From: Polyangiales bacterium
GTDB lineage: Bacteria; Myxococcota_A; Polyangia; Polyangiales; Ga0077539
Direction of reading: 5' to 3'
NCBI GenBank assembly: GCA_044229975.1
Contig: JBGARZ010000001.1
Location: forward strand, 352,001 to 416,000
Length of the DNA stretch: 64,000 nt
Shown: piece after piece, positions 47,316 to 57,535 of the stretch
Layout: each line of letters opens with the position of its first letter
Numbering within the stretch: the first letter of the stretch is position 1
The notes under the pieces: model-generated
What the model was told of the DNA's origin: nothing
What the model saw: the letters and a program-made list of their open reading frames with translations, nothing else
The model's database searches: none
Translations under genes and position numbers: made by a program

Positions 47316-47768
47316 ATGTTCAGGCGGCGAGAGCGCAAGCGCGCGATGGAGCGACAGATCGAACTCACGGCGATGACCCTCCAGGGGTTCGTCGACGCGG
47401 GCATCCTCATGGCGGCGGCCGACGGCGAGATCACCACCGAGGAGTACGACCAGGTCGCAGACGTGATCTCCGGCTTCCTCGACGGGAAGGTCTCCAACCG
47501 GGACATCCGCGCCATCATCAACGAGGCCATCGAGATGCTGGAGGAGCAGGGCTACGACGCGCGCCTCGAAGCGCTCAACGCCAACCTGGTCACCGAAGAG
47601 CTGCGTGAGGTCGCCTTCCAGGTGGCCTGCGCGGTGCTCGTGGCCGACGGCGAGTACGGCGAGGACGACGAAGGCGAGGCCTACGACGACATCGCCGACG
47701 CGCTGGAGATTGATCAAGACCGCGCGCAGGAGCTCTTCGACGAGGTCGGCGCCATCTACGGCGACTAG
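47316..47768 (+). CDS. TerB-family (tellurite resistance-like) protein
   Basis: AAADGEIT.EE and ADG.....E.....IA.AL.I; highly acidic; AAGGAG RBS. Confidence 0.8.
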   Translation: MFRRRERKRAMERQIELTAMTLQGFVDAGILMAAADGEITTEEYDQVADVISGFLDGKVSNRDIRAIINEAIEMLEEQGYDARLEALNANLVTEELREVAFQVACAVLVADGEYGEDDEGEAYDDIADALEIDQDRAQELFDEVGAIYGD

Positions 47769-47820
47769 GCCCCCGCCACCGCCGCAGGAGTATAGAGAGA
47801 GCCGTAGGAGTTCTCATCTC

Positions 47821-49212
47821 GTGCGGCGGCCCTCCAACCTGTCTCTCGTCCTCGCCGCAGCCTCGCTCGCCGCGTGCGCGACCACCGCGCCCATCGAGCG
47901 GGCGGAGTCCGTCGCGCCTCACCTCCGAAACCCCGCGACCCACAGCGACCACGCGCCGACACAGGTGCATCCCCACGCGGCGCTCCCCGATCCGAGCGGG
48001 CGCGAGGAGGTCGAGCTGTCTTCGTTTCTCGCGTACGCCGACGCCCGCGCTCCGGTGTTGCAGGTCGCCCGCAGCACCCGCTCACGCGCCGCGGCCGCGC
48101 GCGTCGCCGCGAGCCCGTGGGCCCCGTCCAACCCCGAGGTGAGCCTCGCCGTCGGGCCACGCCTCGGCCTCACGGGCGTCGGCGTCGACGTGCAGGCGAG
48201 CGTCACCCAGCAGTTCTTCATCGGCGGCGAGCGAGGGCTGCGGCTCACGGCCGCCGAACGTCAGCGCGACCTCACCGACGCCGAGATCGAGCAGCTCCGC
48301 TGGGCCGTGCACTGCGACGTCCACGCGGCCTTCCACCGCGCCCTCGTGCAGCGCGACCGCGCCCTCCTCGCGGCGCGCATCCTGGCCTTCCAGGAAGACC
48401 TCCTGCGTATCGTCGAGCGGCAGATTCGCGCGGGCGAGACGGCCGGGCTCACGCTGCGTCTCACGCAGGCCGAGGTCGCCCAGGCGCGGCAGCTCACCGT
48501 CGCCGCGACGCAGGGCTACCTCAGCGCCCGCATCCAGCTCGCGCAGCTCTCGGGCTGGCCCGTCGCGCGTCCGCCGACGCCCGTCGGAGAGGTCGACGCC
48601 GCGCGCGAACCGCCCGCCCTCGACGTGCTGCTCACCACGGCGCGACAGCAGCTCCCGTCGCTCCGAACGCGCGACGCCGCCGTGCGCGAGGCCCAGGCGC
48701 GCGTGGCGGTGGCCGACCGGCAGTCGTGGCCCCAGCCCACCGTCGGACTCCAGTATCAGCGCGAGGGAAACCCCACCGCCGAGGGGCCGTACCACACCAT
48801 CCAGGGAGTGGTGTCGGTGCCCATCCCGAGCTTCCAGCGCAACCAGGGTGAGCGGGCCCGATCGCGCGCCGACGTGCGGGTCGCCGAGGCCGAGCTCGCC
48901 GCCGCGCTGTCGCTGCTCGAAGGTCAGGTGGCGCTCGCCCACAGCGAGGTCACCTCCGCGGCGCAGCGGCTGCGAAGCTACGGCACCGAGGTGCTGCCGC
49001 GCTTCGAGGAGAACCTCTCGCTGCTGCGAAGGTCGTTCGAGCTCGGGGAGATCGACGTGCTCGCCCTCTCCATCGGACGCGAGCGCTTCCTGCGCATCCA
49101 GAACGACGCGCTCGACGCGCAGCTCGATTACTTCGTCGCCCTCGCCAACCTCGAACGCACCGTCGGCGTCGACCTCTGGCCCGACGATCACAGCGCCGAA
49201 GGATCACCGTGA
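47821..49212 (+). CDS. TolC/CzcC-type outer-membrane efflux lipoprotein
   Basis: Lipobox LAAC; NP..., VSVPIP.FQRNQG, F..GEID.L; first gene of the RND operon. Confidence 0.88.
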   Translation: MRRPSNLSLVLAAASLAACATTAPIERAESVAPHLRNPATHSDHAPTQVHPHAALPDPSGREEVELSSFLAYADARAPVLQVARSTRSRAAAARVAASPWAPSNPEVSLAVGPRLGLTGVGVDVQASVTQQFFIGGERGLRLTAAERQRDLTDAEIEQLRWAVHCDVHAAFHRALVQRDRALLAARILAFQEDLLRIVERQIRAGETAGLTLRLTQAEVAQARQLTVAATQGYLSARIQLAQLSGWPVARPPTPVGEVDAAREPPALDVLLTTARQQLPSLRTRDAAVREAQARVAVADRQSWPQPTVGLQYQREGNPTAEGPYHTIQGVVSVPIPSFQRNQGERARSRADVRVAEAELAAALSLLEGQVALAHSEVTSAAQRLRSYGTEVLPRFEENLSLLRRSFELGEIDVLALSIGRERFLRIQNDALDAQLDYFVALANLERTVGVDLWPDDHSAEGSP

Positions 49213-50330
49213 TGCGACTCCTCGCGCTGCTCTTCGTGCTCGTGGCCTGCCAGCGCGCGACGCCGCCAGCGACCGCCGAACCCGTCGCCGAAGCAGGCAC
49301 TCCCCACGAGGTGCGGCTCACCGCCGAGGCCATGCGGCTCGCGGGCGTTCGCACCGGGCAGGTCGAGCGACGCGCGCTCGGTGGAGGCGTGGCGCTGCCC
49401 GCGGAGGTGCAGTTCGAGCCGAGCAGCACGGCGCAGGTCGGGCCCTTGGTGTCGGGGCGCATCACCCGCGTCGCCGTCGCGCTCGGTCAGCGCGTGACCC
49501 GCAACGAGCTGCTCGGGGTCGTGGCCTCCAACGACGTCTCGGCGGCCCGCGCCCGCCTCGGTCAGGCCCGCGCCCGTCTCTCGGCGGCCGAGGCCACGCT
49601 CCGTCGGCAGCGCGCTCTCTCGACCGAGGGCATCGGCGCGCAGCGCTCGGTCATCGACGCCGAGGCCCTGGTCGGCGAGCTCCGCGCCGAGGTCGAAGGG
49701 ACCCAACGGCAGCTCGCGCTCTTCGGCTCGGGCACCGCGGGTGAGTTGCAGCTCCGCTCGCCCATCGACGGAGTGGTGGTCGCGGTGCAGGCCGCGCTGG
49801 GTGAGACCGCGAGCCCCGAACGGGCGGTCTTCGTGGTGACCGATCCGACGCGGGTGTGGGTGCGCGGTGATGTTCCCGAGCTGGAGATCGCGCGCGTCGC
49901 GGTGGGCACCGCGGCCGTCGTCCGCCTGCACGCCTTCCCCGACCTCGCCCTCGCCGGAACCATCGTCTACGTCGCCCCGGCCCTCGATGAGCGCACGCGA
50001 TCGCTCCCCATCCGCGTGTCGCTCACCACCCCGGACGCGCGCCTGCGCAGCGGCCTCTTCGGCAGCGTCGAGCTCGTCGGCGGGTCGCCCGATGAGCGGG
50101 TGCTGGTGGTTCCGGTCGATGCGGTCGCGACCATCGAGGGTCAGCCGACGGTGTTCGTCCCGGGGGCGACTCCGCTCACCTTCCGCCCGCAGGCGGTGGA
50201 GCTCGGTCGGCGGGCCGGCGGCTTCCACGAGCTGCGCGGCGGGCTCACGGAGGGCGCGACGCTCGCGGTGAGCGGGGCCTTCACGCTGAAGAGCGCGCTC
50301 CAGGGAGCCGAGCTCGGCGAGGCCGACTGA
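49209..50330 (+). CDS. CzcB/CusB-type RND periplasmic adaptor
   Basis: Lipobox LVAC; GRITRV.V.LGQ.V, LRSPIDGVV, VWV..VPE, LD..TR. Confidence 0.9.
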   Translation: MMRLLALLFVLVACQRATPPATAEPVAEAGTPHEVRLTAEAMRLAGVRTGQVERRALGGGVALPAEVQFEPSSTAQVGPLVSGRITRVAVALGQRVTRNELLGVVASNDVSAARARLGQARARLSAAEATLRRQRALSTEGIGAQRSVIDAEALVGELRAEVEGTQRQLALFGSGTAGELQLRSPIDGVVVAVQAALGETASPERAVFVVTDPTRVWVRGDVPELEIARVAVGTAAVVRLHAFPDLALAGTIVYVAPALDERTRSLPIRVSLTTPDARLRSGLFGSVELVGGSPDERVLVVPVDAVATIEGQPTVFVPGATPLTFRPQAVELGRRAGGFHELRGGLTEGATLAVSGAFTLKSALQGAELGEAD

Positions 50331-50331
50331 G

Positions 50332-53300
50332 GTGAAGAAGATCCTCGAGCTCTGCCTGAAGTGGCGGGTGCTGGTGCTCGCCTTCGTCGTGCTCGTCACC
50401 TTCGTCGGCGCCGAGAGCATGCGGGCGCTTCCCATCGACGCGGTGCCCGACATCACCAACGTGCAGGTGCAGGTGCTGACGCGGGCGCCGTCGCTCGGGC
50501 CGGTGGACGTCGAGCGGCGCATCACCTTCCCGGTGGAGTCGTCCATGAGCGGCCTGCCGAGGCTGACCGAGGTGCGCAGCGTGTCGCGCTTCGGCCTGTC
50601 GGCGGTGACCGTGGTCTTCGAGGAGGGCACCGACCTGCTGCGTGCGCGACAGCTCATCTCCGAGCGGCTCGTGCAGGCGCGCGAACGTCTCCCCGACGGT
50701 GTGTCACCCGAGCTCGGTCCGTTGAGCACGGGGCTCGGGGAGATCTACCAGTTCGAGGTTCGCAGCGACCGGATGTGCGCCGAGGGCGCGGCCGACACCG
50801 AGGCGTGCCACACCCCGATGGAGCTGCGCTCGACGCTCGACTGGTTCATCGCGTTCCAGTTGAGGTCGGTGCCGGGCGTGGTGGAGGTCAACGCCTTCGG
50901 CGGCGAGCTGAAGACCTACGAGGTCGCGGTGCTACCCGACCGGCTGCGCGCGCTGGGCGTCTCGCTCAACGACCTCTTCCAGGCCATCGAGCGCAACAAC
51001 GCCACCTCCGGCGGCGGGTATCTCCTGCGCGCGGGCGAGCAGCTCCTCGTGCGCGGCGAAGGGCGCATCCAGTCGCTCGACGAGCTCGGCGACGTGCTCA
51101 TCGAGACGCGCGCGGACGGCGTCCCGGTGCGGGTGCGCGACGTGGCGCGGGTGCACCTGGCGCCGATGATCCGGCAGGGCGCGGTGACCCGCGACGGCCG
51201 CGGCGAGGTGGTGACGGGCATCGTGATGATGCTGGTGGACGCCAACGGCCGCGAGGTGGTGGAGAGCGTGAAGGCGCGCATCCGCGAGATCGCCCCGTCG
51301 CTCCCGCCGGGTGTGCGCATCGACACCTTCTACGACCGCGGCGAGCTGGTGCAGCGCACCATCCACACCGTCGCCAAGAACCTCGCCGAAGGGGCACTCT
51401 TCGTCGTCGCGGTGCTCTTCCTGCTGCTGGGCAGCCTGCGCGGCGGGCTCATCGTGGCGGCGGCCATTCCGTTCGCGATGCTGGTGGCCTTCACGGGCAT
51501 GCGGGCGCTCGGCCTGAGCGGCAACCTGATGAGCCTGGGCGCCATCGACTTCGGCATCGTCGTCGACGGGTCGATCATCGTGGTGGAGAGCGCGGTGGTG
51601 CACCTCGCCGCCGCCGCGAAGGGCCAGAAGCGACCGCTCTCGTACCGCGAGGCCGCCGACGTGGTGCTGCGCTCGACGCTCGACGTTCGCCGCGCCGCGC
51701 TCTTCGGCGAGGCCATCATCGTACTGGTGTACGTGCCCATCCTCACCCTCGCGGGTGTCGAGGGGAAGATGTTCAAGCCGATGGCGATCACGGTGCTGTT
51801 CGCGCTGGGGGGTGCCTTCATCGCCTCGCTCACCTTCGTGCCGGTGCTGGTCGCCTCGCTCATGCGCCAGAAGCCCGAGGACCACGAGCCCTTCGTCGTG
51901 CGGCTCATCCACGGGGTCTATCCGCGGCTGCTGTCGGCGGTGATGGGCGCGCCGCGTCTCGTGATCGCGCTGTGCCTCGCGCTGCTCGTGGTGACGGGGC
52001 TGGTGGGTTCGACCATGGGCGCGGAGTTTGTTCCGAGGCTCGACGAGGGCGCGCTGGCCATCCAGGTGATGCGGCTGCCGAGCGTGTCGCTGGAGGAGAG
52101 CGTGCGCGGGGCGACGCGCTTCGAGCGGGTGCTGCGGGAGTTTCCCGAGGTGATCACCGTGGTCACCAAGACGGGGCGCGCGGAGATCGCCACGGACCCG
52201 ATGGGCGTCGAGCTCTCGGACGTCATCGTGGCGCTGCGACCGCCCTCGGAGTGGCGCACCGCCCATACGCGCGAGGCCCTCATCGCCCGCATCTCGGCGC
52301 GGTTGACGGAGGCGCTGCCGGGGATGGGGTTCTCGTTTTCGCAGCCCATCGAGCTGCGGATGGCGGAGCTCATCAGCGGGACGCGCTCCGACGTCGCCAT
52401 CACCGTCTACGGCGACGACCTCGGCACGCTCGAACGCCTCAGCGGGCAGATTCAAGCCGTGGCCCGCGGGGTGCCCGGCGCGACGGACGTGCGCGGCGAG
52501 CAGCTGGAGGGATTGCCGACGCTGGAGGTGACGGTCGATCGCGCGGCGGCGTCACGGTACGGGGTGTCGGTACGCGACGCCCTCGACGCCATCGAGGTGA
52601 TCGGCGGGCGCGGCGTGGGCGAGGTCTACGAGGGCGAGCGGCGCATCCGGTTGCAGGTGCGACTGCCGCAAGCGCTGCGCGATGACATGGACCAGGTGCG
52701 GATGCTGCCGGTGAGCGGGCCGAGCAACACGCTGGTTCCGCTGGGGCAGATCGCGAGCATCCAGGTGGTGGACTCACCCGCGAGCGTGAGCCGGGAGGCC
52801 GTGCGGCGGCGCACCAACGTGGAGGTCAACGTGCGCGGCAGGGACCTCGCGGGCTTCGTGCGCGAGGCGCAGGAGCGGGTGCGCGAGCGGGTCCATCTGC
52901 CACCGGGCTACGTGCTGCGCTGGGGCGGCCAGTACGAGAACCTCGCGGCGGCGTCGGAGCGCCTGGGCTTCGCGGTGCCGCTCGCGCTGGGGCTCATCTT
53001 CGTGCTGCTGTACATGGCCTTCGGGGAGATGAAGACGGCGCTGCTCATCTACCTCAACGTGCCCTTCGCGGCGGTGGGCGGCGTGCTGCTGTTGCGGATG
53101 CGTGGGATGCCGTTCTCCATCAGCGCGGGCGTGGGGTTCATCGCGCTGTTCGGCATCGCGGTGCTCAATGGCGTGGTGCTGCTGACGACGGTGAAGAAGC
53201 TGCGCGCGCAGGGGCGATCGGCACTGGAGGCCGCGCGCAAGGGCGCGGAGAGTCGGCTGCGAGCGGTGGTGATGACGGCGACGGTGGCGGCGCTGGGGTT

Positions 53301-53499
53301 CATCCCGATGGCGCTGTCGTCGAGCGCGGGCGGAGAGGTGCAGCGGCCGCTCGCGACGGTGGTCATCGGGGGGTTGTTGAGCGCGACGTTCCTGACGCTG
53401 TTCGTGCTGCCGACGGTGTACGCGTACCTGTTCCGCGACGACGTGGTGGCGCCGCCCGACGAGGCCGATACGGAGACGGTCGCGCCTGTGGGGTCGTAG
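50332..53499 (+). CDS. CzcA/CusA family heavy-metal RND transporter
   Basis: LPIDAVPDITNVQVQV, NLMSLGAIDFG..VDG, GKMF.PMA, EFVPRLDEG, GFIALFGIAVLNG, EVQRPLATVVIGG. Confidence 0.96.
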   Translation: MKKILELCLKWRVLVLAFVVLVTFVGAESMRALPIDAVPDITNVQVQVLTRAPSLGPVDVERRITFPVESSMSGLPRLTEVRSVSRFGLSAVTVVFEEGTDLLRARQLISERLVQARERLPDGVSPELGPLSTGLGEIYQFEVRSDRMCAEGAADTEACHTPMELRSTLDWFIAFQLRSVPGVVEVNAFGGELKTYEVAVLPDRLRALGVSLNDLFQAIERNNATSGGGYLLRAGEQLLVRGEGRIQSLDELGDVLIETRADGVPVRVRDVARVHLAPMIRQGAVTRDGRGEVVTGIVMMLVDANGREVVESVKARIREIAPSLPPGVRIDTFYDRGELVQRTIHTVAKNLAEGALFVVAVLFLLLGSLRGGLIVAAAIPFAMLVAFTGMRALGLSGNLMSLGAIDFGIVVDGSIIVVESAVVHLAAAAKGQKRPLSYREAADVVLRSTLDVRRAALFGEAIIVLVYVPILTLAGVEGKMFKPMAITVLFALGGAFIASLTFVPVLVASLMRQKPEDHEPFVVRLIHGVYPRLLSAVMGAPRLVIALCLALLVVTGLVGSTMGAEFVPRLDEGALAIQVMRLPSVSLEESVRGATRFERVLREFPEVITVVTKTGRAEIATDPMGVELSDVIVALRPPSEWRTAHTREALIARISARLTEALPGMGFSFSQPIELRMAELISGTRSDVAITVYGDDLGTLERLSGQIQAVARGVPGATDVRGEQLEGLPTLEVTVDRAAASRYGVSVRDALDAIEVIGGRGVGEVYEGERRIRLQVRLPQALRDDMDQVRMLPVSGPSNTLVPLGQIASIQVVDSPASVSREAVRRRTNVEVNVRGRDLAGFVREAQERVRERVHLPPGYVLRWGGQYENLAAASERLGFAVPLALGLIFVLLYMAFGEMKTALLIYLNVPFAAVGGVLLLRMRGMPFSISAGVGFIALFGIAVLNGVVLLTTVKKLRAQGRSALEAARKGAESRLRAVVMTATVAALGFIPMALSSSAGGEVQRPLATVVIGGLLSATFLTLFVLPTVYAYLFRDDVVAPPDEADTETVAPVGS

Positions 53500-53505
53500 G
53501 ACGAC

Positions 53506-53798
53506 GCGCACCGGTCAGGCCCGCAGTACATGGCGCCAACGCTGCGGCGTCAGCGCGGCGCGCACCGGTCAGGCCCGCAGTCACCAGCGCCCACGCCGCA
53601 GCGTCAGCGCGGCGCGCACCGGTCAGGCCCGCAGTCACCGGCGCCCACGCCGCAGCGTTAGCGCGGCGCGCACCGGTCAGCTCCGCAGTCACCGGGGACC
53701 ACGCCGCAGCGTCAGCGCGGCGCGCACCGGTCAGGCCCGCAGTCACCAGCGCCCACGCCGCAGCGTCAGCGCGGCGCGCATCCGCTACGTTCGCAGTC
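53506..53798 (+). repeat. Left arm: ~5.4 tandem copies of a 54-bp unit
   Basis: Consensus GCGCACCGGTCAGGCCCGCAGTCACCRGCGCCCACGCCGCAGCGTCAGCGCGGC; copies start at 53506, 53560, 53614, 53668, 53722 and 53776 (partial). Confidence 0.95.
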
Positions 53799-53841
53799 GA
53801 GATCCGACAGCCCCACGAGACCGAGAATGAGTTGTTCGGAC

Positions 53842-54130
53842 GGTGACTGCGGGCGTAGCGGATACGCGCCGCGCTAACGCGCTGCGGCGTGGGCCCCGGT
53901 GACTGCGGGCGTAGCGGATACGCGCCGCGCTAACGCTGCGGCGTGGGCCCCGGTGACTGCGGGCCTGACCGGTGCGCGCCGCGCTGACGCTGCGGCGTGG
54001 GCCCCGGTGACTGCGGGCCTGACCGGTGCGCGCCGCGCTGACGCTGCGGCGTGGGCCCCGGTGACTGCGGGCCTGACCGGTGCGCGCCGCGCCAACGCCG
54101 CAGCGTGGGTCCTATGTACTGCGGGCCTGA
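53842..54130 (-). repeat. Right arm: ~5.3 tandem copies of the same 54-bp unit, inverted
   Basis: Repeating GGTGACTGCGGGCCTGACCGGTGCGCGCCGCGCTGACGCTGCGGCGTGGGCCCC is the reverse complement of the left-arm unit. Confidence 0.95.
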
Positions 54131-54618
54131 ACCGCGGACGGCGCCTGCTCTCGGAGATCCGTCCCGATGAGCGCGCGTATCGCCCGCGCCGCCCCCTCAG
54201 CGGTCTCCGGGCTCGCCACGCCGAAGGACACCGCCTCGCCACCGCGCAGCGTGAGCGTCACCGCGTCCAACGTGACGCCGTCGTTCGCCACCACCCGACC
54301 GTGCTGCGCGTCCGCGATGTCCCCGAGCGCCACCACGCGCTCGCCCCGTCGATGGGTGATGCGCAGCGTCCGCGCGCCCGCGTCCGCCGTCACGCGCGTC
54401 GTCGCCAGCGGACCACGTCCTCCCAATAGCGATTGCACCGCCACCACCGCGAGGCCGATGGCGACCGCCGCCACGAGCCACCGGGGGCTCGGCAGCGCGC
54501 GCGCCGTCACCCACAGCGCCAGCGCCACAAACAGAACTCCCCCCACGACGATCGCCCACCGTCGCGGCGGCGGCGCGGGGTGCTCGTAGACGATCTCCGC
54601 GGCCTCGGGCTCGCTCAC
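54112..54618 (-). CDS. Hypothetical membrane protein (two TM helices + PH-like beta domain)
   Basis: Host-like codon usage; TAGCGT box 7 nt before GTG 54618; stop codon lies inside the repeat arm. Confidence 0.6.
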   Translation of the reverse strand: MSEPEAAEIVYEHPAPPPRRWAIVVGGVLFVALALWVTARALPSPRWLVAAVAIGLAVVAVQSLLGGRGPLATTRVTADAGARTLRITHRRGERVVALGDIADAQHGRVVANDGVTLDAVTLTLRGGEAVSFGVASPETAEGAARAIRALIGTDLREQAPSAVQARST

Positions 54619-54830
54619 CGTCGCGACGCTACCACGGCGCCCACGCCCGGGACTCGGAGCGGGAGACGACGGGGACCGACGTTCGTAAGAACGCCGGACT
54701 ACGATGGTTCTGCGAGCGTGCGCGGGTGGAGGAACCAGCGCCGCGACGGCCCCCGGAGCTGGCGGGGTCTGGGTCGACCCAGGCCCCATTGGTCAGGTGC
54801 AACGTTTCTGCGGTTCCGTATGATCCCGGT

Positions 54831-55732
54831 ATGAAGCTCCGCCTCGCGTGGTGGAATACGGGGCTGGCGGGAAAAAAGCCGTCCGTCAGACAGATTTCAG
54901 ACACTGCGAAGGTGATCCGAGCGCTGATGCGGGAGGAGAGCTGCGCGGTAGTCGGCCTCTGCGAGGTCCGACCGAGCGTGTTGGAGCCGCTGTTGAAGGA
55001 GGTCCTTCAGTTTCCGTACGCGACATGGAGGCCCAACGCGCCACAACCCGACCTCCCACGACCGCACGATCTCCTCGTGCTCTTTGATCCGCGCATCGTC
55101 AGCGTGACCACTCGCGAGCCCGTGTTCGCCGAGGTGGCAGATCATCGTGTCTACGCGGGGCTCGTCTTCGACCTCGGGCTGCCGCAGGATCAGTCGATGA
55201 GGCTGGCTCTCTGCCATTGGCCTGCAGAGCTTGGCAATCACCGCCACGCCGAAAAGCTCCGGAACGCTTCCGCCTTCACGATGAAGTCCGCCCTCGCCTC
55301 AGCGGGGACGCTGCACGACTCGATAGTGCTGGGCGATTTCAACGCCGAGCCCTTCTCCGAGGCGATGGAATCGATGGGCGGTAATCGTGACCTGGAGCAG
55401 GTGCGCAAACGCAGGGGCCTCCTCTACAACGCCGGATGGCGGTGGCTGGGTTCGCGACGTCCGTTCGACGGCCGGGACCTGACCTGCTCGCCGCCGGGGA
55501 CCTACCTGATGAGGAGTGGCGGGAGAGAGAGAGTGCATGGCGCACGTTCGACCAAGTTCTCGTCTCAAGGGCGGCCCTGCTGGGGGTCGGTTGGACCCTT
55601 CGCGAAGACGAGACCGCGCCCTGGCACGGGGATGAGCTGAGAGGTTCTCGTGGTGGCTTCCTCCGCAAGCCCCTCGATCACCTGCCCCTCGTCGTGACGC
55701 TGGAGTACATTTCCCCTGTCGCTACGGAATGA
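54831..55732 (+). pseudogene. Endonuclease/exonuclease/phosphatase (EEP) family nuclease split by a frameshift in a (GA)5 tract
   Basis: First frame: AWWNT, GLCEV, CHWP, LGDFNAEPF, LYN, PGTY. Second frame continues W.TFDQVLVS..DHLP. Removing one GA at 55523-55532 fuses them (~299 aa). Confidence 0.85.
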
Positions 55733-55743
55733 GAGGCACGCAC

Positions 55744-56187
55744 ATGGGTGAGAAGTTCCTGGACGCGGTGAAGAAGGGTCAGCGCGCGGCGCTCGCAGCG
55801 GAGAAGAAGGTCGGCGAGATCCGGGCCGTCATCGCGGACCTGGACTCACAGGTTCGGCAACTCTCCGATGGAGTAGTGGGCGTCGCAGAGAGTCCTCGTC
55901 CCGCGACTCCGAAGAAATTCGTGCCCAATCTGACCAAGGGATTCGAGCCGCCACCTCGGCGCTACAACGCGCTGGTCTTCAAGAGGGGGGACGAGGAACG
56001 GGAGTTCTGTGAGTTCGAGCCAGGACCGGCTGGCTATCCGGTCGAGATCCGTTTCGACGGTGGGTTCATGCTGGCGTCGGCGCGCGTCGAACTCGTCGCA
56101 GCGCTTAAGGACGTCCTCGCCACCCCACAGGCCGGTCGTGCCCTCAACGCCCTGATCGATCCGGCGCGCGCTCGCAAGGCGGGCTGA
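55744..56187 (+). CDS. Hypothetical protein, putative partner of the EEP nuclease
   Basis: GAGAGG RBS at the EEP stop; N-terminal helix FLDAVKKG..AA..A....EI..V; C-terminal GYPV.I. Confidence 0.75.
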   Translation: MGEKFLDAVKKGQRAALAAEKKVGEIRAVIADLDSQVRQLSDGVVGVAESPRPATPKKFVPNLTKGFEPPPRRYNALVFKRGDEEREFCEFEPGPAGYPVEIRFDGGFMLASARVELVAALKDVLATPQAGRALNALIDPARARKAG

Positions 56188-56525
56188 ACCGCAGCACTGC
56201 GGTGGTGCATGGCCTCGGCGACGTCGACCTCGCGGCGTGCGCCGACATCGACGACGCGTTCGCGGCGCTCACCGCCGCACCGTAGCGGTCACCCTCGGCC
56301 AGACTTCGGTCAACCCGAGCGGAGGCAATGCCCGCGAGGGTGCCCCGTCGGATCGCTTGGCGCGCGGGCAGAAGTGCCTGCCGGGGCGGGCGGAAGGCCC
56401 ACCGCGGGCGCTCGAGGGGCATCGGCGATGCCCTTGCGGGGTTGCGGTGCGCTTCTCGGACCTTGCCGACGCGTCCGGCAAGCTCCCGGGGCGTCCGACA
56501 GGGCTTGCGGGCGGCGACGGAGGCG

Positions 56526-57260
56526 TCAGGGCTGGGCGGTGGTGGCCTTGCGGGCGGCGCGGCGGGCGAGCCCGAGGAGGATCAGGTGATCGCGGCGGCG
56601 GATGATGGCGCGGGCGACCTCTGACCACTCCTTCCACCACCCGTGGAGGGCGACGAGGGCGGCGGCGCGGGCTCCGTCGGTGGCGGGCGCCGCATCGGTG
56701 GCGGTCGGCGCGGCGGGCGATGCCTGGGCCTTCTTTACGAGGGCGCGGAGTTCGGCGAGGCGCTCGGGGCCGTAGCCGCGCTGGGCGACGAGGTCGAGGG
56801 CCTTGCGGTCTTCGACGCGGGTGGCGGAGCGCGAAGGTGAGCTGGCGAGCGCGTCGAGGCGGTCGAGGAGCGTCGCGACGACGATGACGGCGCCCGCGCC
56901 CTGGGTGGCCTGGACGCCGTCGAGGACGAAGTCGGCCTGCTTGGGGAAGCGCCGCCCGAGCGACGCGCGGAGGATGCGGACGAGCGGCTCGTCGACGGCG
57001 TCGACCTGGATGATGGCGGCGCGCACGGACTCGTCGAGCGAAGCAACGAGCGCGGCGCCGGGCGTGTTGGTCTGCGGGGAGAAACCGGCGGCGTCGTGGA
57101 GGAGGCGCCAGCCCTCGCGGTGGTCGTCGTCGGTGTAGCCGCGAGCGGCGAGGGTCGCGCGAATCGCGAGGTGGGTGCCCAGGGTCTTGAGCAGATTGAT
57201 GGCGCGGGTGGGCGCCTCGTCGAGGACCTGACGGCTCGGTGCGGTGTCGGATGTGGTCAT
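56526..57260 (-). CDS. Hypothetical alpha-helical protein
   Basis: GGAGGG RBS; host-like codon usage; motifs GYT..DHREGW.LL and WW.EWS..AR..I.RRD.L..LGL. Confidence 0.75.
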   Translation of the reverse strand: MTTSDTAPSRQVLDEAPTRAINLLKTLGTHLAIRATLAARGYTDDDHREGWRLLHDAAGFSPQTNTPGAALVASLDESVRAAIIQVDAVDEPLVRILRASLGRRFPKQADFVLDGVQATQGAGAVIVVATLLDRLDALASSPSRSATRVEDRKALDLVAQRGYGPERLAELRALVKKAQASPAAPTATDAAPATDGARAAALVALHGWWKEWSEVARAIIRRRDHLILLGLARRAARKATTAQP

Positions 57261-57535
57261 GGGGGTTCCCTCCGGGCGCGGTGATGAGAAAGAGGCCGCG
57301 ACGATAGGGAGAGTCAGCGAGGGCAGAGGGGCGGGGCAAGCGAAACCAGTCGGGCGACCGTGGGTCGACGGAGAGGACGCCGCGCTTCCCTTCGGGCCGA
57401 CGACCGCAAACGGGGGTGGGTGCCTCTACCGGAGCGGACGCCGAACTCCGACCCCATCGCCCACTCCAAACCCCGCCCCTCCGCCCGCGGCTTGACACCC
57501 CCGGTCGCGATGGGCTCCAACGCGCCCTTCCCCCG

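Follow-up and report, generated by a model that had tools for sequence, protein, structure and literature searches.

Here, we identify the foldback at positions 53506-54130 of the window, i.e., the whole 64-kb stretch of DNA analyzed (G000:C32:352001-416000), as a pair of inverted arrays of REP hairpins. It is likely a non-autonomous REPIN-type element that is moved and amplified in trans by P0001, a predicted Y1-HUH protein encoded on contig C26 of the same genome (10.0 Mb, 71% GC, 39 contigs), and from the sequence we put the probability of this reading at roughly 0.85. The original prediction had likened the foldback to a REPIN, a BIME or a foldback element and had noted that no transposase is present in the window. 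Both points held: a search of the window with the PF01797 profile, the one profile used, returned no Y1 transposase, and the transposase sought was found on C26, flanked by the same arrays.

Architecture of the foldback

In the 625-base palindrome, a 42-nt centre separates five 54-bp units from five further units in inverted orientation. The description of two inverted 54-bp arrays was reproduced computationally: both tandem arrays were recovered (53505-53780, period 54, 5.1 copies, 91% match; 53841-54130, period 54, 5.3 copies, 92% match), and the arms are mutually inverted, with 89% complementarity over 264 nt. Each unit is composed of one REP hairpin (CCYA foot, bulged stem and GTCA loop) and a variable linker. 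For the second hairpin of the left arm, CCCA + CGCCGC-A-GC-GTCA-GC-GCGGCG, the predicted folding energy as DNA is −10.6 kcal/mol versus −3.4 for the small 4-bp hairpin.

By repeat and alignment analysis, the left arm (53506..53798, plus strand) comprises five head-to-tail 54-bp units followed by a partial linker. Its hairpins, all on the plus strand and placed by unit comparison except for L2, are L1 (53536..53560), which is outermost and has a CCAA foot, a C-to-T stem variant and a GTCA loop; L2 (53590..53614), which has a CCCA foot and was placed by weight matrix and fold; L3 (53644..53668), which has a GTTA loop; L4 (53698..53722); and the innermost L5 (53752..53776), the unit of which is identical to that of L2. 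The centre, or spacer, spans 53799..53840. The right arm (53841..54130, minus strand), delimited in the same way, has five inverted units including one of 56 bp. Its minus-strand hairpins are the innermost R5 (53867..53893), which the weight matrix missed and the unit of which is 56 nt long because of a 2-nt duplication, and, by unit comparison, R4 (53923..53947; GTTA loop), R3 (53977..54001; unit identical to that of R2), R2 (54031..54055) and the outermost R1 (54085..54109), which has the same C-to-T variant as L1.

The sequencing data comprised ten DNA runs with small shares, and no RNA run was listed. No read or contig crosses the element, the run contigs that align to the window being from related strains. 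The lack of a spanning read would be compatible with an assembly artefact in the form of a fold-back chimera. However, the two arms differ at many positions, the same design is present at 26 other sites and on an independent metagenome contig (L151), and run X1 yielded a 253-nt contig in which an array unit is connected to the 3' end of the P0001 gene, with 4 differences over 181 nt. We consider such an artefact extremely improbable.

Unit variants and mirror symmetry

The variants of the units had been described as mirror-matched between the arms, which was taken to mean that the two arms are copies of a single ordered element. At the outer ends, the observation stands. AGTACAT and ACGCTGCGGCGT are present in both outermost units, and AGTACAT is a linker variant private to this locus (left copy, 53525..53531, plus strand; right copy, 54112..54120, minus strand): in a comparison of 194 REP copies it was found in two, both being the outermost units here. 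A 13-mer around AGTACAT has a third match in the genome, without a REP within 300 nt. ACGCTGCGGCGT occurs in 3 of 194 copies, i.e., the two outermost units and one other. It had been read as an inverted hairpin; the variant is real, but inversion is not needed to explain it, as it is one C-to-T change away from ACGCCGCGGCGT, the palindromic form that is commonest (90/194 copies). At the inner ends, ATCCGCTACG had been noted in both innermost units. It was found in both arms, but once in the left and twice in the right, and it is present twice more at the REP locus C33:243290. In the middle, the symmetry fails, the repeated units being arm-specific duplicates (L2 equals L5, and R2 equals R3). 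The mirrored pairs L2/R2 to L5/R5 differ at 2, 2, 5 and 13 positions, respectively. The mirror order thus matches at the outer ends, partly at the inner ends and nowhere else and, with unit numbers varying as well, copying of one ordered element into both arms is not supported.

The genome-wide REP family

When the 54-mer was followed genome-wide for copy number, orientation and transposase, 194 REPs at 79 sites emerged, together with a Y1-HUH gene beside the arrays on C26. These counts were obtained with a weight matrix based on 185 pattern hits, with copies clustered into sites at 1.5 kb; the reversed-genome control gave 0. The sites comprise 27 doublets, 6 one-arm tandems (two of them at contig ends) and 46 singles. 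All 27 doublets have inverted REP arms around a spacer in the order plus then minus, with the foot outward; one minus/plus pair 1.9 kb apart represents separate sites. With genes called by a codon-score method of our own (7848 genes, 89% coding), 191 of 194 REP copies are extragenic.

The REP has a CCYA foot, a 6-bp stem, one bulged purine, a 2-bp stem and a GTCA loop. Conservation covers GGGCCYA then CGCCGC-R-GC-GTCA-GC-GCGGCG-CGC, mostly at 85-100% per position, and the linker is variable. The GTCA loop is present in 163/194 copies, and the most frequent feet are CCCA (115), CCTA (25), GCCA (20) and CTTA (12); in one variant with ten copies, two stem pairs are broken. We discarded a reading of the REP on the other strand, with a CTGA foot or as GTRG plus a linker hairpin, because conservation of the linker is poor and the REPs of P0001 homologues match the GTCA-loop strand. 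A pattern search detected 177 copies in G000 and a single copy in one congener; the 29 other family genomes searched, several of which are incomplete, had none.

As RNA, the foldback is predicted to form a single long stem of ~290 bp (−654.8 kcal/mol; z −48.8 versus 20 shuffles). The proposal that it could form an RNA stem or a cruciform is therefore sound as far as physical possibility goes. This very stable predicted fold and the placement of 9/27 doublets between convergent genes, as opposed to 18% of gene pairs (p ~0.04), would fit a scenario in which the host retains the foldback for its role as a long RNA stem, or as a barrier to transcription where genes converge, with mobility only a side effect. 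By contrast, a scan of the element for promoters and terminators found no terminator-like or promoter site, 18 of the 27 doublets are not between convergent genes, no REP was found in 29 of the 30 genomes searched from the family, and the czcA orthologues of congeners are without it. We regard retention by the host for an RNA function as very unlikely. Against Rfam, the only matches of the foldback were to miRNAs and stayed below threshold (45.5 bits, with 90 required).

In one subfamily (L151:445-890 and, in G000, C20:557260, C2:262095, C27:126808, C33:140088 and C34:407581), there is an additional outer end of ~45 nt starting TAGAACAC, which on L151 is inverted at both termini. The doublet at C2:174494-176047 is nested and encloses another foldback around an ORF of ~250 codons. 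At C19:221170, C19:474225, C32:823504 and C4:315698-318269, the inverted arms enclose entire genes of 0.4-2.3 kb, and the ORFs carried at C19:221170 and on C4 have similar N-termini.

The probable partner enzyme

P0001 is the product of a 163-aa ORF on the minus strand of C26 (70986-71477) that is flanked by arrays of 10 and 18 units with the same polarity. Two lines of evidence indicate that it has a Y1-HUH core. First, it scores 29.7 bits against PF01797 (cut-off 23). Second, its structural model (pLDDT 91.8) has TnpA-REP (4ER8) as the top PDB match, followed by the TnpA proteins of ISDra2 and IS608. P0001 does not reach the cut-offs of the RAYT model NF047646 (32.9 bits; cut-off 80) or the IS200/IS605 model NF033573 (32.7 bits; cut-off 55). 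We rejected a canonical RAYT with GTAG REPs (class 2), because the foot is CCYA rather than GT[AG]G and the NF047646 score is below cut-off, and also a multi-copy IS200/IS605 transposase, because the NF033573 score is below cut-off and the gene is single-copy, only one gene in the genome having these flanks. In congeners, the flanks of the C26 locus are on different contigs.

Comparison with homologues points to class 3 TnpA-Y1 (Quentin et al. 2018, PMC6006769). First, 54 homologous proteins were found, and the alignment of 45 of them has the consensus NHVH, WWTERG and YV..GQ, which resembles the class 3 motifs NHVH, W[TA] and YV[VI][AENY]EQ in Table 1 of PMC6006769. Second, the best 80 genome loci of homologues are mostly from Planctomycetota and Acidobacteriota, the phyla given for class 3 in that paper. 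Third, patterns from the published class 3 REPs were found at 7 and 2 of 132 loci; these nine are homologue loci without exception, and several have matches on both sides of the gene. Fourth, GNNA-loop hairpins are oriented outward on both sides of the gene at 29/72 homologue loci and inward at 12/72, compared to 0/56 in far-flank controls. In G000, the bulged hairpin with its GTCA loop has the same layout as in the class 3 rows of Table S1 of PMC6006769, and REPs are present both beside the gene and scattered elsewhere in the genome. Because homologues at 35-43% identity are flanked by published class 3 REPs, P0001 can be placed, if indirectly, with class 3. The published CnGA foot was not found here; many homologue loci also lack CnGA and, thus, this foot is not universal. 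P0001 itself departs from the class 3 consensus (EHVH, WS and YVCDEH) and, therefore, may be an impaired enzyme.

Other Y1-HUH genes of G000 are accompanied by repeats of their own. A second class 3 gene (L126, on C13) has a different arrayed unit of 42-43 bp. L002 (C23), L003 (C23) and L004 (C34) are Y1-HUH genes between their own inverted arms of 135, 104 and 94 bp, respectively, and the arms match ~16 (L002), ~40 (L003), ~54 (L004) and ~27 (L126) places in the genome. From these separate arm families, at least five REP-type systems coexist in G000. By eye, the doublet at C19:491402-492155 is nested and holds a gene-less copy of L002-type arms. At L001:641-2805, a gene pair for an AAA ATPase and an HNH nuclease lies near the class 3 gene; it presumably resembles an anti-phage module.

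Probable mobility of doublets

The centre of the foldback recurs, at ~80% identity in the centre comparison, at 7 other, distant sites at which unit numbers differ (5+5, 3+2 and 2+2 among sites with the common centre). Moreover, 3 of 7 doublets tested in five congeners have empty sites in which the flanks are adjacent without the element (C13 in 5/5 genomes, C30 in 2/5 and C36 in 3/5); for the other four doublets, the flanks are apart or missing. We also observed the reverse case, i.e., a metagenome contig with a single REP where G000 is empty, and L151, another metagenome contig, has an intact arrayed doublet. The common centre and the empty sites suggest that the doublet likely moves as a whole unit; the 46 singles among the 79 sites count against this. 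At L168 (G000:C36:346850-348450), G000 has an insertion of 570 nt that three congeners do not share; it is made up of the doublet and, next to the left arm, what looks like a truncated gene fragment.

From the outer flanks, no fixed element end or cleavage dinucleotide emerged, which speaks against our main reading, and the outer ends are ragged. A C|T cleavage signature, hinted at by one filled/empty pair, was dropped because CT is not enriched at outer ends (27/106 outer flanks versus 39/106 control windows). Another candidate considered was a G|T site, which would be located at the GCAGTC motif, a frequent start and end point of arms; the analogy here is to the guide rule described in PMC8266576. 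The empty sites are from other species and too diverged to read a target-site duplication. An alternative is that a DDE transposase acts on the terminal inverted repeats of a MITE or foldback element, which would account for the few sites where inverted ends extend past the arrays (L151, C20 and C2:262095). However, conservation peaks at the hairpin rather than at the termini, the ends are ragged as described, and the gene enclosed by the arrays encodes a Y1-HUH enzyme, making a DDE-served element highly improbable.

The locus in congeners

As described, the foldback lies between convergent genes, i.e., czcA (50332-53499, plus strand; TIGR00914) and an ORF ending at 54112 (minus strand). czcA belongs to an extra paralogue of a czcCBA-type efflux operon (47872..53499, plus strand), which is 89% identical to the copy on C29 and, together with the element, absent from this site in the congeners G002 and G004. 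The convergent gene (54112..54618, minus strand) encodes a membrane protein without a Pfam family, and its ancestral 3' end has been replaced by element sequence: its TAG stop codon (54112-54114) is formed by the right AGTACAT copy with the next bases, and the next in-frame stop is beyond the entire right arm and the centre. Because the right AGTACAT copy supplies the stop codon of the neighbour, the private outer variant may have been fixed first on the right arm.

In G002 and G004, a TerB-like gene (47316-47768 in the window) directly adjoins the 54112-54618 gene. Relative to these genomes, the window has 6.4 kb extra (47786-54166), comprising a third close czcCBA paralogue and the element, and the syntenic czc site is held by the C29 copy. 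The idea of finding an empty site at czcA was therefore only partly fruitful: the element is absent, but so is the czc operon, and either may have been inserted first. A second stretch (54790-57480) is also missing at this position in congeners, and it includes an ORF of the endonuclease/exonuclease/phosphatase family (54726-55640).

Proposed growth of the arms

We suggest, as the likely scenario, that the arms lengthen in place and that sequence passes from one to the other across the stem. Based on HUH chemistry and by analogy with the model for E. coli BIMEs (PMC3333891), TnpA would bind the single-stranded hairpin, nick nearby and join strands, such that whole doublets are copied or moved. 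At a new site, the arms would then grow head to tail by REP-plus-linker units, probably by nick-primed copying as modelled for BIMEs; we lean slightly toward nick-primed copying over plain slippage. Once the foldback has formed, sequence would be copied between the arms by template switching or by enzyme-made strand exchange, placing the private outer variant on both. In the genome as a whole, the two partner arms have a 10-mer in common that no other arm carries in 11/27 doublets, compared with 33/702 cross pairs. Part of this could be explained by common descent from a lost parent doublet.

Alternatively, and quite possibly, if at less than even odds, the enzyme seeded only single REPs or doublets, and the host's own processes (replication slippage, unequal exchange and template switching in the foldback) were sufficient to produce the arrays and the mirrored variants; this alternative concerns the amplification step only. 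It fits with the frequent identity of neighbouring units (L2 and L5, R2 and R3), the 2-nt slip in R5, the linker mosaics of the C26 arrays, which by eye change at several positions rather than one, and the known homogenization of inverted arms by template switching (PMC5941160). Against it, the longest arrays (10 and 18 units) are beside the gene, and class 3 loci in this bacterial family typically carry arrays. From 105 class 3 loci, 9 were dropped because their flanks were <150 nt; class 3 genes have arrays on both sides at 14/24 loci in this family, a set of non-independent kin with two loci from G000 itself and pairs that are likely orthologous, versus 5/72 other loci. The array units are 34-88 bp and differ between loci. 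By contrast, the inverted arms around the three other PF01797 genes of G000 are single rather than arrayed.

Enzyme-driven amplification of the foldback, our preferred reading, can be extended into a more speculative and, in our estimate, improbable one, in which the class 3 TnpA-Y1 of this family builds polar arrays by nick-and-copy and shuttles sequence between arms, and the arrayed foldbacks serve as platforms by which neighbouring genes are captured or delivered. The extra czcCBA operon, the gene fragment on C36 and the whole genes between arms at at least five sites would then be cases of capture or delivery.

Comparison with known systems

Our findings do not change what REP systems are. 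Class 3 TnpA-Y1 enzymes have been proposed as intermediates between IS200 transposases and REP-associated enzymes, a proposal left for experiments (PMC6006769). G000 supplies an enzyme, a sharply defined substrate of 194 copies, natural variants and empty sites, thereby making two questions testable, i.e., the local amplification of REP arrays and the doublet as the mobile unit outside the GTAG families. A search of literature outside subscription journals for later work on class 3 TnpA-Y1 listed PMC6006769, PMC3733652 and one unrelated paper, and among the 20 best literature matches listed there was none on REPINs or RAYTs in myxobacteria.

With class 3 TnpA-Y1 as described in the sections of PMC6006769 covered here, the system shares the Y1-HUH family, a bulged GTNA-loop hairpin, a REP-enclosed gene and high copy number. 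It differs in having a CCYA rather than a CnGA foot and in the motifs EHVH, WS and YVCDEH. Moreover, polar head-to-tail arrays are present on both sides here, whereas those sections do not describe arrays or doublet mobility.

As for the REPINs of RAYTs in the parts of Bertels and Rainey (2011, PMC3116915) consulted, the likely mobile unit is an inverted doublet with a spacer, clusters are present beside the transposase gene, and singles are regarded as remnants. However, ordered clusters in that work are tandem whole REPINs or one-direction arrays, whereas here each arm of a doublet is an array, and the hairpin here has no GTAG/GTGG foot on its 5' side. E. coli REPs and BIMEs with TnpA-REP (Ton-Hoang et al. 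2012, PMC3333891; PDB 4ER8) similarly have variable linkers and a copy number that varies per locus, and the two-step model in the portion of that paper covered, spread followed by local amplification, is reminiscent of the one suggested here. By contrast, REP orientation alternates in BIMEs, while the orientation is the same throughout an arm here and the ends have no C|T signature. The REP clusters and TIRYTs/TIRtrons in the available passages of Di Nocera et al. (2013, PMC3733652) include singles and dimers reiterated in tandem with flanking DNA, and tyrosine transposase genes between long inverted repeats; these families, however, are GTAG- or CGTC-tagged, and TIRYTs are mostly placed in subclass 2.1 in PMC6006769. 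Tandem REP clusters and REPINs are themselves known, and a doublet with both arms arrayed was not encountered in the passages of PMC3733652 and PMC3116915. Altogether, the arrayed-arm architecture is likely a variant within a little-studied but known partnership between repeats and transposases.
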